A DNA stretch of 64,000 nt from Acidimicrobiia bacterium UBA5794 (GCA_002418265.1 DIDS01000009.1:58764-122763); one strand, 5' to 3'. Numbered from the stretch's first letter, positions 4,691 to 45,705 are shown. Program-made: numbers and translations. The notes: generated by a model from the letters alone, not told the origin.

Positions 4691-5290
4691 GTGGCCACAA
4701 AGCGAAGCCCCAAGAAGATCACAGGATCACTGATCGCCGGAGCACTCCTTGTGCCGCTGACCGCCGTCGCCGCTGCGGCGCTGGTCGGGTCCATCACCAA
4801 CGCACAGGGTGCCGAGGCAGCGTCCCCGACACCGGTCACCATGACTGTCGAACGGCCAGCCACGACACCATCAGCAACACCGGAATCGGACACGGAAGCC
4901 ACCATCGCCGCCTGCACATCGGGCGTCGAGACACTCCTTGCTGCTGAACGCGACGGGACAATCGATCCACTCCAGACTGCCGCACTCGATGCTCTGCGCC
5001 AGATCTGTGAGCAAGAAGGAATGGCAATCGACGGTCCCCCGCTTCCCGAGCCCGTGGTCAAGGTCGTGACCGTGAACCAGGCCGCGCCGGCCGGTGGGCA
5101 GGGCGAGAATCTGGCATGTTCCGACGACGACGATGCCTATGACGACGACGATGCATACGACGACGACGATGCATACGACGACGAGTGCGATGACGTCGAT
5201 GATCACCATGACGACGACCATGACCATGGTGATCACCATGACGATGATCACCATGATGACGGCGGCCACGATGACGAGGACGACGACTGA
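4691..5290 (+). CDS. secreted protein with acidic His/Asp-rich C-terminal tail (putative metal-binding)
   Basis: GTG at 4691 is preceded by aaaggag. Has a signal peptide (KKITGSLIAGALLVPLTAVAAAALVG) and four Cys. The tail reads DDDDAYDDDDAYDDDDAYDDECDDVDDHHDDDHDHGDHHDDDHHDDGGHDDEDDD. The ORF track places the start at 4640. Confidence 0.55.
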   Translation: MATKRSPKKITGSLIAGALLVPLTAVAAAALVGSITNAQGAEAASPTPVTMTVERPATTPSATPESDTEATIAACTSGVETLLAAERDGTIDPLQTAALDALRQICEQEGMAIDGPPLPEPVVKVVTVNQAAPAGGQGENLACSDDDDAYDDDDAYDDDDAYDDECDDVDDHHDDDHDHGDHHDDDHHDDGGHDDEDDD

Positions 5291-5640: not shown

Positions 5641-5975
5641 TGGCGAAGCGTATGACAGCGAGCCGAGTCGCCGGCATCACAGCATGGTCAGCAGCTGCCG
5701 TGGCATGGGGCACCGCAGCCGTCGCCTTCGTCACACCGGGATCGTCAACGGGAGCACCGGCGGTGGTGATGGAACCCCCGCCACCGCTTGCTCCGATCCA
5801 GAGCTCCGTTACGGCACCGCAGGCTTCCCTGCCCGCGATGCCAGAGACCGGACTCGTCGTTGTTCGCTATACCCCTGTCGATCGTCCCGAGGCAGAGGTC
5901 GTCGTTGAGCGCCGGATCGTTGCGGCGACGACACCAAGTGCTCGTGCTCCACGCGTGAAGAGCTCCGGATCGTGA
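5637..5975 (+). CDS. small exported hypothetical protein
   Basis: ATGA overlap. Signal-like N-terminus (RVAGITAWSAAAVAWGTAAVAFVTPG). Pro/Ala-rich. Confidence 0.4.
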   Translation: MMAKRMTASRVAGITAWSAAAVAWGTAAVAFVTPGSSTGAPAVVMEPPPPLAPIQSSVTAPQASLPAMPETGLVVVRYTPVDRPEAEVVVERRIVAATTPSARAPRVKSSGS

Positions 5976-41202: not shown

Positions 41203-41243
41203 GTGGCTTCTCCTGAGGTCCAGGAACCGCACACTACAGATAT

Positions 41244-41345
41244 CAGACGTCAGAAGTCAGAAGTCAGACGGTCCCCCTGCGGAGTAGGGCCTGCTGCGCA
41301 GGCATTGCTCCGCGTCCCCCCGGAAACCGGGGAGACGGGATAACC
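41244..41345. repeat. heptamers plus single REP-like unit (locus L)
   Basis: cagacgtcagaagtcagaagtcagacg, then gtccccctgcggagtagggcctgctgcgcaggcattgctccgcgtccccccggaaaccggggagacggga. This is the reverse-complement orientation of the locus E hairpin region. Confidence 0.85.
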
Positions 41346-41378
41346 AGGCACCATCGCATCGACACTGCCCACCGGCTT

Positions 41379-42200
41379 TCAGCCAGTTGTGTTCATCGGC
41401 TCGACCATCTCAATGTCTTGGACAACGATTCCGATTGCATCGATCGCTGTTTCTCGGTCTCCGCGGGCGCTGACCGTGTAGTACACGCCATCTTCGTTCC
41501 ATGTGAAAGCGACGGAATCGTGGTGAATTCCACCCCCACATTCGACCAGTGAGCCCTCGTACTTGCCAAATCTGATGACCGTGGGATCGTCACACACAGG
41601 GTCAAACCGCGACGCCTCGATCACGAAATGGGAAAGCACCTTTTGTGCATCCAGTGAACGGGACCCGGACAGCTCCACCATGAAGGTTCCGGATGAAACA
41701 CATGGGGTGTCTTGATCGTCGTTCGACGGGCGGCAGTACTGGCTTCCGGTTTGAAACGGGATGGTGTGTGGACAAGGCACGGCGAATCCCAGAAGATCTG
41801 CCGCAGCAACACAGGTGTCACGGAAATCGGACCCCATGATGGTCAACACTATTGGAGACTCTGCCATGGTGAACGTTGTCCGGGGCTCAGGCACGTCTCC
41901 TGTGGTCGACGGCGCTGCTGGCGGGGCATCGGTGCTCCGCAAGGACGCCACGGCGACAGCGCCAAAGACCGTGATGACGGCAACGGCAGCGAGCGCGAAG
42001 ATCAACCCTGTGTTCTTCCATGGTTTCGGACTCGTCAGGGATGGAATCCCCCTCGTTGCTCGGCGTTCGACGTTCTTGGACATCGCCACACTTTTCTCCT
42101 CAATGGCAAGGAGGAGGGTTGCATCTTCAATCGTGAGTCCGTGCTCGGACACCGGATTGGCGGCGGCGAGTCGATGCAGGATGTCTGAATCATTCATCAC
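41379..42200 (-). CDS. membrane anti-sigma factor (cognate to the upstream ECF sigma)
   Basis: ATGA-coupled to the sigma gene. Cytoplasmic N-terminal domain, one TM segment, Cys-rich extracytoplasmic domain (6 Cys). Confidence 0.55.
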   Translation of the reverse strand: MMNDSDILHRLAAANPVSEHGLTIEDATLLLAIEEKSVAMSKNVERRATRGIPSLTSPKPWKNTGLIFALAAVAVITVFGAVAVASLRSTDAPPAAPSTTGDVPEPRTTFTMAESPIVLTIMGSDFRDTCVAAADLLGFAVPCPHTIPFQTGSQYCRPSNDDQDTPCVSSGTFMVELSGSRSLDAQKVLSHFVIEASRFDPVCDDPTVIRFGKYEGSLVECGGGIHHDSVAFTWNEDGVYYTVSARGDRETAIDAIGIVVQDIEMVEPMNTTG

Positions 42201-42748
42201 ACTTCTCCTTCAGCAGCCTTGGAGGAAGACTGCACGCTGTCTGTTGGGTCGTAGGCCTTTCGAAGCCGGCCGATCGCCCTGTGGATTCGCTGGTCAAGTG
42301 TGCTACGAGATATCCCGAACATCGCGGCCACCTGATCTCGAGGGTGTTCCTCCCATGCGATGAGGCGAAGGATTTCCTGGTCCTGCTTCCTGAGCGAAGC
42401 AACGGCATCGATGAGGCGTTGATCGTTTTCATTGCGAACCACCTGAATGGCGGGGTCGCGCGAGACTTGCTCCGCAGTGCCAGCAAGCTTTGCCTTCAAG
42501 GCTCCGAAGCGATTCGTCGACCTCCGCTGGTTGGACAGAACCCGGAAAGCAACCGCGTAGAGCCAACTGCGTTCGGCTTCGCCGGTTGGCACCTCGTCAA
42601 TTCGTCTCCATGCCACAGCAAACGTGTCTTGGACCGCATCCATGGCGTCGTCCCGTCCGGTCCGGCGCATGCAGTACGACACGATCGCGTCCAGATGGAC
42701 GGCGTACATCGTCCGGAAACGCACATCAGCAATCGACGATCGATCCAC
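42197..42748 (-). CDS. ECF-family RNA polymerase sigma factor
   Basis: Sigma-70 region 2 (AVQDTFAVAWRR...SWLYAVAFRVLSN) and region 4 (ILRLIAWEEHPRDQVAAMFGISRSTLDQRIHRA). Confidence 0.85.
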   Translation of the reverse strand: MDRSSIADVRFRTMYAVHLDAIVSYCMRRTGRDDAMDAVQDTFAVAWRRIDEVPTGEAERSWLYAVAFRVLSNQRRSTNRFGALKAKLAGTAEQVSRDPAIQVVRNENDQRLIDAVASLRKQDQEILRLIAWEEHPRDQVAAMFGISRSTLDQRIHRAIGRLRKAYDPTDSVQSSSKAAEGEV

Positions 42749-42863
42749 GTTGTTTCTCCATGCTCACCGTATAACTGTCCGGACGACGCGTTCCATGACA
42801 GGTTCATTTTCGCTGTCATGAACTTCGAATGCCGGACATGCGGTCTCCACCAAGGTTGCAACA

Positions 42864-42899
42864 GATACCACCTTGTGAATAATTTCACAAGGTGGTATC
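42864..42899. promoter_or_regulatory. perfect 16-4-16 palindrome GATACCACCTTGTGAA-TAAT-TTCACAAGGTGGTATC
   Basis: Lies in the divergent region between the ECF sigma and sqr, about 32 bp upstream of the sqr ATG. Either an operator or a 5'-UTR hairpin. Confidence 0.5.
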
Positions 42900-42930
42900 C
42901 TGTGTGTGTAAGTCATTCGGGAAAGGATCC

Positions 42931-44169
42931 ATGATGCAACGCATTCTGATACTCGGGGCGGGTACGGCAGGCACCATGGCTGCAAATCACCTCCGCAAGG
43001 AACTCGGGTCGGAGTACGAGATCACCATCGTCGATCAGGACGAAACCCACTACTACCAGCCCGGATTCCTCTTCATTCCCTTCGGCACCTATCAGCCTTC
43101 AGACGTGATGAAGCCAACGGCGGACTTCCTTCGCAAGGGAATCTCGCACGTCAACGGTGAGGTGGCATCGCTCGAACCAGCTGCGAACAGGGTCCTGCTC
43201 ACGGATGGACGAACATTTGGCTATGACCACCTGATCATCGCAACCGGCACGCATCCGACGCTGGGAGAAACACCGGGTCTCGACTCGGACGAATACGGCA
43301 AGACGGTGCACGACTTCTTCAGCCTCGAAAGTGCCGTAGCGCTCCAGGAGGCACTCAAGGAATTCAAAGAAGGACGCCTGGTGGTGAGCCTGATCGAAAT
43401 GCCGATCAAGTGCCCGGTCGCACCTCTTGAGTTCGCATTTCTCGCTGATGCGCACTTCACCGATCTCGGGATCCGCGACAAGGTTGAGATCGTCTACGTG
43501 ACTCCCATGAGCAGTGTTTTCACCAAGCCAGTCGCGTCCGAGCAGCTCGGCGACATGTTCGAACAGCGAGGCATTCACCTCGAACCCGACTTCTACCTCG
43601 AGCGAGTCGATGCTGAAGCGAAGATGCTCGTGTCCTACGACGAACGGGAGGTCCCCTACGACCTACTCGTGACAGTGCCCATCAACATGGGAGCCTCGTT
43701 CGTCGGTGCCGCGGGGATCGGTGACGAACTCAACCACGTACGAGTCGATCCTGGGAACTTCCAGTCTCCGGACTATCCGAACATCTTTGCACTTGGCGAT
43801 GCGGCGAGCCTGCCGACATCGAAGGCGGGATCGGTTGCGCACTTTGCAATGGACACGTTCGTCCCGAACTTCGTCGACTACCTGCTTGGGCTTCCCATGA
43901 AGCACGAGTTCGACGGGCACGCAAACTGCTACATCGAGACCGGGCACGACAAGGCAATGCTGATCGACTTCAACTACAAGACCCAGCCACTTCCGGGAAA
44001 GTACCCGGTGCCGGGAATCGGACCCTTCTCTCTCCTTGAGGAGTCGAAGGTCAATCACCGAGGCAAGCTCGCATTCCGATGGATGTACTGGAACCTGCTC
44101 CTTCCCGGTCGGCATCTCCCCGTATCGAGCGAGATGTCAATGGCAGGCAAGGACACCGATCTCGCATGA
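42931..44169 (+). CDS. sqr: sulfide:quinone oxidoreductase (SQR, FAD-dependent)
   Basis: GAGTAGT FAD fold. SQR cysteine blocks IKCPVAPLEFAF and GHANCYIETG, FALGDAAS. Start MMQRILILG after gaaagga. Confidence 0.8.
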   Translation: MMQRILILGAGTAGTMAANHLRKELGSEYEITIVDQDETHYYQPGFLFIPFGTYQPSDVMKPTADFLRKGISHVNGEVASLEPAANRVLLTDGRTFGYDHLIIATGTHPTLGETPGLDSDEYGKTVHDFFSLESAVALQEALKEFKEGRLVVSLIEMPIKCPVAPLEFAFLADAHFTDLGIRDKVEIVYVTPMSSVFTKPVASEQLGDMFEQRGIHLEPDFYLERVDAEAKMLVSYDEREVPYDLLVTVPINMGASFVGAAGIGDELNHVRVDPGNFQSPDYPNIFALGDAASLPTSKAGSVAHFAMDTFVPNFVDYLLGLPMKHEFDGHANCYIETGHDKAMLIDFNYKTQPLPGKYPVPGIGPFSLLEESKVNHRGKLAFRWMYWNLLLPGRHLPVSSEMSMAGKDTDLA

Positions 44170-44211
44170 CCACACGGTGCGTGCGACAAGAACTGAATCA
44201 ATGGAGGAACC

Positions 44212-44529
44212 ATGCCGACCACAGCAATCGCTGATAAAGAAATCCATGTCGACGCAGAAGGATTCATGACCGAATACGACGAGTGGGACGAAGATCTCGC
44301 TCGCATCCTGGCATCCAACATCGGCATCGACGAACTCACCGAAGCCCACTGGTCGGTGCTCAACTTCCTGCGAGCCGACTACGCCGAGCGGGGCGAGACC
44401 CCGACTCTGCGTCGGGTGTCGGCCACCGGAGGCGTTCCGACCAAGGAACTGTTCGTGCTATTCCCGAAGAAGCCAGCACGCAAGATGGCGTATGTGGCCG
44501 GTCTGCCAAAGCCCGTCGGCTGCATCTGA
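44212..44529 (+). CDS. TusE/DsrC-family sulfur-relay protein
   Basis: 105 aa with the characteristic C-terminal arm ...AGLPKPVGCI and the LNFLRADYAERGETPTLRRV helix region. Confidence 0.6.
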   Translation: MPTTAIADKEIHVDAEGFMTEYDEWDEDLARILASNIGIDELTEAHWSVLNFLRADYAERGETPTLRRVSATGGVPTKELFVLFPKKPARKMAYVAGLPKPVGCI

Positions 44530-44547
44530 CAATCGAAAGGAGACACC

Positions 44548-45060
44548 ATGACAGCCACCGAGACCGCCCCGATGGTCGTTCCGGATTTTGGAGACGAGAA
44601 CGAGAGTCGCAAGATTGCGTTCGTGTGCTCAAAGGGCACCCTCGACATGGCCTACCCCGCGCTGATCATGGCGTCTGGTGCTCTGGAACAGGGCATCGAG
44701 ACACACATCTTCTTCACGTTCTGGGGCATGGACATGATCAACAAAAAGACGATGAATGATCTCAAGTTCACGCCTGTCGGGAACACCGCGACACACATGC
44801 CGATGGCTCTCACACCCTTGCCGGGTATGACTGCGATGGCAACGAGTCGGATGCGCAAGCAGTTACAGGAACTCGACATCCCCGATGTCCCTGCATTCCT
44901 TACGCATCTCTCCGACATGGGGTGCCATCTGTGGGCATGCAAGATGTCCGTCGACATGTTCGACCTTGAACGAGATGACATGATGGACGAACTCGACGGG
45001 ATCCTCAACGTGAGCGACTTCATCGAGCTCATCGAGGGCGCCCAGACGATGTTCATCTAG
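44548..45060 (+). CDS. DsrE/DsrF-like family protein
   Basis: KIAFVCSKGTLDMAYPALIMA N-terminal active-site Cys context. 170 aa. Confidence 0.6.
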   Translation: MTATETAPMVVPDFGDENESRKIAFVCSKGTLDMAYPALIMASGALEQGIETHIFFTFWGMDMINKKTMNDLKFTPVGNTATHMPMALTPLPGMTAMATSRMRKQLQELDIPDVPAFLTHLSDMGCHLWACKMSVDMFDLERDDMMDELDGILNVSDFIELIEGAQTMFI

Positions 45061-45087: not shown

Positions 45088-45705
45088 CTACGAGCCTGTG
45101 GCTGCGTATTCGATCTGGCAGAAGCCGTGGTTGCAGTAGCCGCCAGGATTCTTTGCAAGGTACTGCTGGTGATATTCCTCGGCATAGTAAAAAGGTCCAG
45201 CTTCGGCGATCTCCGTGGTGATGGTGCCATAGCCTGACTCCGTCAGCCCTGCTTGGTACGCCCCCATCGAGGCGACAGCGACATCTCGTTGCGCAGGATC
45301 GGTCCAGTAGATCGCTGATCGATACTGCGTTCCACGGTCGTTTCCCTGTTGGTTCAGCGTTGTCGGGTCGTGTTGTTCCCAAAAGTGCTTCAGCAAGATT
45401 TCGAACTCGATCTGGGTCGGGTCGTAGACCACAAGGGCCACCTCGGCGTGACCTGTCGCGCCGGAGCAGACCTCTTCGTAGGTCGGGTTCGGTGTGATGC
45501 CGCCCTGATATCCGACGGCCGTCGTGATGACACCAGGCAGTGACCAAAAGATGCGTTCGGCACCCCAAAAGCAACCCATACCGAAGGACACAACCTGAGA
45601 TCCTTCTGGGAACGGTGGGGTCATCGAGGACTCGTTCACAAAGTGGATGCCGCTGATGGAGAGCGGCTCATCCCGTCCCGGCAGGGCTGTGTCGCGCGTT
45701 GGCAT
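45088..45705 (-). CDS. msrA: peptide methionine sulfoxide reductase MsrA
   Basis: GMGCFWGAE active site and an E. coli-type N-terminal extension (ALPGR...HFVNESSMT). Start codon uncertain (45705 or 45729). Confidence 0.85.

Follow-up and report, generated by a model that had tools for sequence, protein, structure and literature searches.

The stretch of DNA analysed here (64,000 nucleotides of Acidimicrobiia bacterium UBA5794, GCA_002418265.1, DIDS01000009.1:58764-122763; hereafter the window, with positions counted from its first letter) stems from a metagenome-assembled genome of 59% G+C and carries three genes for sulfur-handling proteins preceded by a perfect palindrome. The first gene (sqr, 42931-44169, plus strand) codes for an SQR (sulfide:quinone oxidoreductase) of type III with 412 aa, a flavoprotein of the Pyr_redox_2 family. 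It is followed by the genes for a TusE/DsrC-family sulfur carrier of 105 aa (44212-44529, plus strand) and for a DsrE2-type (DsrE2B-like) sulfurtransferase of 170 aa (44548-45060, plus strand). The palindrome (16-4-16, GATACCACCTTGTGAA-TAAT-TTCACAAGGTGGTATC, 42864-42899, not assigned to a strand) ends 31 nt before the ATG of sqr and consists of a Rex-type core, i.e., the conserved inner 7-4-7 inverted repeat TTGTGAA-TAAT-TTCACAA (42873-42890, likewise without strand), and of a 9-bp symmetric extension on each side.

Concerning the SQR, the protein scores 588.3 bits against the NCBIfam model NF049943 (cut-off 525) and covers 406 of its 406 positions. Its best solved relative is human SQOR with 160 bits, whereas the solved bacterial SQRs of types I and V (A. 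ferrooxidans and A. aeolicus groups) reach only about 72 bits. It possesses exactly two cysteines, Cys161 and Cys333, and no third one; both align with the active-site cysteines of human SQOR (KC(A/P)xAP and the C-terminal Cys), and both are invariant in 14 SQR homologues. The GxGxxG motif for binding of flavin adenine dinucleotide (FAD) is present as LGAGTAG at residues 8-14. By family score, the enzyme is thus a type III SQR, for which quinone reduction is predicted; a type I SQR was rejected on the structure scores and on the presence of two cysteines only, and the designation "type-I-like" in the initial annotation is replaced accordingly, given the proximity to human SQOR, the score above the NF049943 cut-off and the absence of the third conserved Cys. 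The subtype described by the model NF049943 is a selenoprotein and shows the motif HxxU (PMC13188914). At this position the window protein shows the Cys form (H330-A-N-C333, with the codon of Cys333 at 43927-43929), and since a model of the selenocysteine subtype is passed by a protein with Cys at the selenocysteine position, both forms coexist in nature.

The 105-aa product, which ends in GLPKPVGCI, belongs to the TusE/DsrC family as initially annotated and passes the respective hidden Markov models (PF04358, E 1.6e-31, 109 bits; TIGR03342, 82.3 bits at a cut-off of 53.5). Its sole Cys, Cys104, is the last residue but one; all 130 of 130 syntenic homologues share it, and none of them (0/130) possesses a second Cys. 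In the alignment to 2xsj_C, the position of the second DsrC Cys, situated 10 residues upstream of the penultimate one, is occupied by Tyr; DsrC sensu stricto was therefore ruled out, this second C-terminal Cys being absent from the 130 homologues as well. A TusE of the E. coli type, which serves the relay for 2-thiouridine in tRNA, was equally ruled out, as the protein reaches 67 bits in NF008562 (cut-off 191) and its gene keeps strict synteny to sqr and dsrE2 instead. The third gene product, for which membership in the DsrE family had been proposed and is borne out, matches PF13686 (DrsE_2) with an E-value of 1.1e-32 and 113.5 bits. Its closest solved structure is 2QS7, the DsrE2B homotrimer of S. 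solfataricus (PMC11094781). Cys131 is invariant in 119 of 119 homologues, and Cys27 is retained in 96 of them. As the NCBIfam equivalog SulfCarrDsrE2 (NF047629) is not reached (102.9 bits, cut-off 210), the protein is considered a DsrE2-like relative and not the named equivalog.

The conservation of the gene order was assessed in 80 genome and 80 metagenome loci with SQR relatives, plus further loci around individual homologues (sampled loci are denoted by L and a number). They stem from Acidimicrobiia, from many Actinomycetes (Nocardioides, Micromonospora, Kribbella, Catelliglobosispora) and from Chloroflexota. A locus was regarded as informative if 2.3 kb or more of sequence was available downstream of sqr (n = 108), and only tblastn-anchored results were used, because gene calling by the longest open reading frame (ORF) gave antisense artefacts in loci of high G+C content. 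In 106 of the 108 informative loci, sqr, the tusE-like gene and dsrE2 are arranged colinearly, and a 107th differs in that its last two genes overlap. The combination of SQR with TusE and DsrE2, which had initially been taken as unusual, is therefore the norm for this SQR clade and not an oddity. A gene-sized insert separates sqr and tusE in 68 of the 106 loci, and the inserts sampled encode a DUF1641 protein; the window has no such gene. The operon is real and well conserved, with every part from a known family and none of them new. The wider notion of a sulfur-trafficking unit holds for these three genes, but not for the divergent pair of genes upstream, which lies in a strain-specific insertion (see below). 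Between dsrE2 and msrA, three loci whose SQR is 98% identical (L161, 7219-8142; L162; L163) carry an ORF of 307 aa with no Pfam match that the window does not have.

The palindrome, too, was correctly recognized in the initial annotation: it is present as a single copy in the window, and 0 of 100 shuffled sequences gave a match. In an alignment of six orthologous promoters (SQRs 76-100% identical), none of the 14 half-site positions of TTGTGAA-N4-TTCACAA varies, and around them the 4-nt spacer and the flanks have diverged to a mean column identity of 39%. The outer 9-bp arms are perfect in this strain only; the left one is not conserved, and the outer arms of the relatives are just partly symmetric. 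What is kept in orthologous promoters is the 18-bp core, whereas the full 36-bp perfection is strain-specific. Of the two outcomes that the initial annotation had named as refuting it, neither has thus come about: the 105-aa protein passes the DsrC/TusE models, and relatives share the core of the palindrome. The core also recurs at the heads of sqr operons whose SQRs are just 59-66% identical. When the 18-bp pattern was searched for with at most one mismatch in 1.45 Mb (window and loci), 21 sites were found, 20 of which are situated at the 5' end of sqr operons, some directly upstream of sqr and others upstream of an HTH_17-PocR gene preceding it; by our own calculation, chance would account for about 0.2.

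A sigma-70-type promoter is predicted from the sequence to drive sqr. Its inferred -35 hexamer TTGTGA (42873-42878, plus strand) is the left half-site of the operator and would be followed, after a spacer of 17 nt, by the extended -10 element TGgTATCCT (42893-42901, plus strand), which lies within and just past the right arm of the palindrome; transcription would start near 42908, and a Shine-Dalgarno-like stretch GGAAAGGA (42920-42927, plus strand), as read from the sequence, precedes the start codon. The 17-nt spacing exists in 6 of 6 orthologues, and TATCCT, TATTCT or TATAAT is found at a constant distance from the operator in all six; the TG of the extended element is absent only in L081, where the hexamer is a perfect TATAAT. 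Over 23 operator-bearing promoters, the second position of the -10 element is recurrently A and the sixth T. The predicted operator covers the inferred -35 hexamer together with the 17-nt spacer, with its centre near -26.5 from the inferred start. The right 9-bp extension of the palindrome is the -10 region, and the left extension mirrors this region and abuts the junction of the insertion.

For the Rex operator, the consensus TTGTGAAW4TTCACAA has been reported in S. aureus, where binding is enhanced by NAD+ and abolished by NADH (the oxidised and reduced forms of nicotinamide adenine dinucleotide; PMC2883068), and the consensus 5'-TTGTGAANNNNTTCACAA-3' (ROP) in S. avermitilis (PMC5355995). 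Positions 42873-42890 of the window agree with the latter at 14 of 14 specified positions, and the spacer contains only A and T. By its sequence the conserved core is a canonical Rex operator, with the same 18-bp consensus TTGTGAA-N4-TTCACAA as in Streptomyces coelicolor, S. avermitilis and Staphylococcus aureus, and control of the sqr promoter by Rex is predicted. At the promoters of rex, nuoA1 and atpI, the area protected from DNase extends between -35 and -10 with the -35 region included (PMC5355995), i.e., with the same placement over -35 and spacer as inferred here. The Rex targets named in these publications are respiratory (nuo, cyd, atp, ndh2; PMC2883068, PMC5355995), and a block of the respiratory chain leads to derepression of Rex (PMC2883068). 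The target in the window is a respiratory enzyme as well, and the reading is supported by the fact that SQR is a respiratory quinone reductase like these targets. Unlike the known sites, the one predicted here is embedded in a perfect palindrome of 36 bp. Neither of the two publications names an operon of type III sqr, tusE-like gene and dsrE2 as a target of Rex, and no paper containing both Rex and "sulfide quinone" was found in the literature searched; the operator is canonical, and the target operon is apparently unreported.

Since the core corresponds to the Rex consensus, it points, for this lineage at least, to control by the NADH/NAD+ redox state and not by a regulator that senses thiols or persulfides. 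This affects several of the initial proposals: a candidate can be named for the regulator that had been left unidentified, and thiol/sulfide-responsive control gives way to a predicted sensing of NADH/NAD+. The suggested scan for sulfur-sensing regulators yielded no ArsR or CsoR domain, nor any CRP or Rex domain, among 25 regulator-sized ORFs of the window (a non-exhaustive Pfam scan, with several ORFs giving no hit at all).

Taken together, we propose, with a probability of about 0.7, that Rex represses sqr-tusE-dsrE2 until respiration is inhibited, and that SQR then oxidises sulfide and the sulfane sulfur passes via Cys131 of DsrE2 to Cys104 of the TusE-like protein. As a homodimeric repressor, Rex would sit on the DNA as long as NAD+ predominates and would be released when NADH rises. 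With respiration unhindered, it would thus block RNA polymerase at the sqr promoter, whereas low oxygen or poisoning of the terminal oxidase by sulfide would raise NADH, remove Rex and allow expression of the operon; through inhibition of the oxidase, sulfide would presumably mimic a respiratory block. SQR would then oxidise sulfide by means of Cys161, Cys333 and FAD with reduction of quinone, and the sulfane sulfur might be taken over by Cys131 of DsrE2 and passed on to Cys104. In this scheme the start of transcription, the binding of Rex, its trigger and the direction of the sulfur transfer are predictions. In the relays from DsrEFH to DsrC and from TusBCD to TusE, sulfur is transferred from the DsrE-type to the DsrC/TusE-type protein (PMC3397948, PMC11094781). 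As in these relays, a DsrE-family gene with an invariant Cys stands here beside a DsrC/TusE-family gene with a penultimate Cys. Differences exist in that one DsrE2-type gene, with a homotrimer as closest solved relative, takes the place of three genes for DsrE-type subunits, and in that the neighbourhood contains neither DsrAB nor MnmA as a partner.

Several points weigh against this scheme. By tblastn, neither the 64-kb window nor any of the loci fetched yielded a rex gene; the Rex-like queries used match solved Rex structures at an E-value of 1e-49. The operator is present at 28 of 135 sqr loci, i.e., at about a fifth only, and control by Rex is therefore not universal for the sqr operon; in other lineages, CsoR-type boxes or the PocR-type regulator take its place. 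In this strain, the inferred promoter fits just 8 of 12 consensus positions, and a consensus promoter scan gave another, non-conserved match (TTGCAA, 16 nt, AATAAT). The perfection of the outer 9 bp is not accounted for by Rex binding. Concerning the sulfur relay, its transfer steps are predicted by parallel with the known relays, and an acceptor for the step after TusE is not encoded in the operon. Finally, the core equally constitutes a perfect TGTGA-N6-TCACA.

This last motif is that of the CRP/FNR family, and a site bound by a CRP-type regulator responsive to cyclic AMP (cAMP) or to another ligand was the reading first considered. In its favour, a protein with an adenylate cyclase domain is encoded just downstream of the operon in L003, L167 and L168. 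The invariant positions, however, exceed the CRP core (T-TGTGA-A and T-TCACA-A, which is specific to Rex), and the CRP reading was dropped after these invariant flanks had been compared with the Rex consensus. Moreover, the centre of the site near -26.5 does not correspond to the -41.5 or -61.5 of CRP activators, CRP-like sites show no excess in the window (1 found, 2.7 expected), and just 3 of about 168 loci have the cyclase gene as a neighbour, such that a link to cAMP was set aside and a CRP site is considered very unlikely. Unlikely, too, is a binding site for a regulator specific to sulfide or persulfide whose gene lies elsewhere in the genome, be it of the HTH_17-PocR, the ArsR/SqrR or the CsoR/CstR type. 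The same inverted repeat does head an operon beginning with an HTH_17-PocR gene in 16 loci, and this regulator has three conserved Cys; yet the repeat is found at 16 of 64 loci with and at 12 of 71 loci without an adjacent HTH_17-PocR gene, whereas clusters of TGCA follow this gene strictly (44/64 with it, 0/71 without it, 0/165 coding controls). Since the repeat is independent of the gene and the TGCA clusters track it, the HTH_17-PocR protein is not the owner of the repeat. Its DNA-binding domain is excisionase/BldC-like, and domains of this kind suit direct repeats. CsoR-type boxes exist at sqr in related Acidimicrobiia, but they differ in sequence (GATACCCTAGGGGGTA), and none with normal spacing is present in the window; the SqrR box, ATTC-N8-GAAT, is unlike the core.

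The initial annotation had left open whether the palindrome is an operator of a dimeric regulator or a hairpin in the 5' untranslated region of sqr, and its invariant half-sites argue for the former. A stable hairpin or DNA cruciform acting on translation, stability or termination would agree with the predicted RNA fold of -34.8 kcal/mol (z-score -6.3, with 0 of 200 shuffles as stable). Alignment folding, however, revealed compensatory changes in 0 of 10 predicted pairs: the inner 7 bp of the hairpin are invariant in sequence, the loop is variable, and the outer pairs are broken in relatives. In addition, no T-run follows the palindrome, no Rfam family exceeds the threshold, and the conserved -10-like element inside the right arm makes a start downstream of the hairpin likely. 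Half-sites that never change, a spacer that does and the lack of covariation indicate a protein operator, and the hairpin appears highly improbable. With regard to the outer arms, the 36-bp symmetry may represent an insertion junction or repair scar, or a template-switch correction of a quasi-palindrome, and would then add nothing to the function of the 18-bp operator. In favour of this, the sequence is homologous to the 98% relative again from 42865, one base into the palindrome, and the arms of the relatives are symmetric only in part; against it, neither a transposase nor an integrase nor a target duplication was found in the insertion. The odds of this explanation seem evenly balanced, and an origin of the outer arms by repair or template switch is plausible; it concerns the outer 9 bp only and is compatible with an operator for Rex. 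If the Rex reading is right, a striking perfect palindrome can be an ordinary operator with a strain-specific symmetric extension.

Among published operons, the nearest parallel found is that of Methylacidiphilum fumariolicum SolV (MFUM_v2_0219-21), in which a type III SQR is also followed by a small sulfur carrier and then by DsrE2. That operon is up 1.7-fold in sulfide-adapted cells (PMC10205796). The carrier is TusA there, whereas it belongs to the TusE/DsrC family (PF04358) here, and the phylum differs as well. Operons controlled by CstR/CsoR (cst type of Staphylococcus aureus) likewise place sqr behind a repressor operator overlapping the promoter. Unlike these, the operon studied here possesses neither a persulfide dioxygenase nor a rhodanese, no CsoR-family gene is found among the 25 ORFs tested, just as the window has no normally spaced CsoR box, and the inferred sensor would read NADH/NAD+ instead of persulfide. 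If the proposed control is true, the Rex regulon gains a sulfide-oxidising quinone reductase, and sulfide detoxification would be tied to the respiratory redox state and not to a thiol-based sensor. Likewise, the type III SQRs, the least understood class of SQRs, would gain a fixed pair of partners with invariant Cys, by which the fate of the SQR product becomes testable. A broader view is more doubtful and is put forward tentatively: Rex might serve as an indirect sensor of sulfide, the pair of DsrE2 and TusE-like protein might be a dedicated acceptor of the SQR product, and, across Actinomycetota and Chloroflexota, the operon might have come by turns under Rex, CsoR/CstR-type boxes or a three-Cys HTH_17-PocR regulator.

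Two further Rex-like sites were observed away from the heads of sqr operons. The sole one with a single mismatch is situated in L043 (6249-6266; Caldilineaceae), about 25 nt in front of the gene for a multihaem cytochrome c, a position that fits a respiratory Rex regulon. A weak one in the window (45624-45641), between msrA and a ClC channel gene, exhibits three mismatches and a perfect right half-site TTCACAA and is within chance expectation. The cyclase mentioned above is large, combines an adenylate/guanylate cyclase domain with AAA_16 and TPR domains and belongs to one small clade of loci only (L003, 9489-12894; L167, 14259-18090; L168, 14334-18179).

In about half of the loci, though not in the window, the gene immediately upstream of sqr encodes an HTH_17-PocR regulator (L003, 5144-6004; L136, 3231-4004; L168, 10001-10861; and about 80 others). 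Its sensory domain contains three Cys that 92-100% of 120 homologues retain, and it is a candidate sensor of sulfide or persulfide. Arrays of TGCA repeats with a phasing of about 10 nt (e.g., GATGCAGAAGATGCAGAAGA) are located between the promoter and this gene (e.g., L003, about 5125-5160; L024; L125; L141, 2490-2545). In many regulator-bearing loci (e.g., L113, L120, L122, L127), a second conserved element, GGGACTTnTGGCCCTA, follows the position of the operator and forms a 7-4-7 near-palindrome TAGGGAC-N4-GGCCCTA over the inferred -10 element and start. In L043 and L153, which are of the Chloroflexota type, palindromes GTGACA-N2-4-TGTCAC are repeated upstream of the HTH_17-PocR gene and replace the Rex-like repeat. 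Boxes of the CsoR/CstR type (e.g., GATACCCTAGGGGGTA, ATACCCGTAGGGGTAT) exist upstream of sqr in L082, L084, L085, L088, L089 and L104, as well as in L017, L056, L065 and L068, i.e., in Acidimicrobiia and other Actinomycetota, with no CsoR gene adjacent; in L017 and L065 they abut or overlap the Rex-like repeat.

Upstream of the palindrome, the window contains a gene for a sigma factor of the extracytoplasmic function (ECF) type (183 aa, 42197-42748, minus strand; Sigma70_r2 and r4_2, TIGR02937 with 81 bits at a cut-off of 42.9) and, overlapping it by 4 nt, a gene for a membrane protein of 273 aa (41379-42200, minus strand) with one transmembrane segment followed by six Cys. The sigma factor and the six Cys agree with the divergent ECF sigma/anti-sigma pair of the initial annotation; the anti-sigma role is putative, because the membrane protein has no match to a Pfam or NCBIfam family even at E-values up to 1 and the assignment follows from gene position alone. 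Both genes lie in a segment of 1623 bp (41242-42864, no strand assigned). In a blastn comparison with L161, where the SQR is 98% identical, homology ends at 41241 before it resumes inside the palindrome, and the segment stands in place of 102 bp of heptamer repeats. It is missing from L001, L161-L166 and L081, and no homologues of the sigma factor or the membrane protein were found in the other related loci fetched. The upstream neighbour of sqr is a purine nucleoside phosphorylase gene in relatives with 98% (three contigs), 91% and 83% identity of the SQR, and, in those with 81% and 76%, a gene for a sulfite-oxidase-like molybdoenzyme, on whose far side pirin is encoded. From its absence in the 98% relatives and the blastn breakpoints it follows that the ECF pair is an insertion specific to this strain and does not, as first supposed, belong to a conserved unit; it is recent, unrelated and incidental to the operon, and an adjacent pair of regulators can thus be of such an origin.

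The insertion is placed between a heptamer tract and the palindrome. Heptamer tandem repeats between the phosphorylase gene and sqr are found in the window (TCAGAAG x 3.7, 41243-41268), in L001 (about 5900-5935) and in L161 (4824-4930, GACGTCG x 7.3 and ACCGATG x 6.7). Within the insertion, an 8-11-8 inverted repeat, CATGACAG ... CTGTCATG (42794-42801 and 42813-42820), is located 46-72 nt upstream of the start of the sigma gene and could be the ECF cassette's own control element. In the relatives with 76-81% identity, the genes for the molybdoenzyme (Oxidored_molyb and Mo-co_dimer) and for pirin are divergent from sqr (L081, 2618-3742 and 1493-2536; L165, 3613-4656 and 2487-3521), the Rex-type site is common to both sides, and the sqr leader has a length of about 200 nt.

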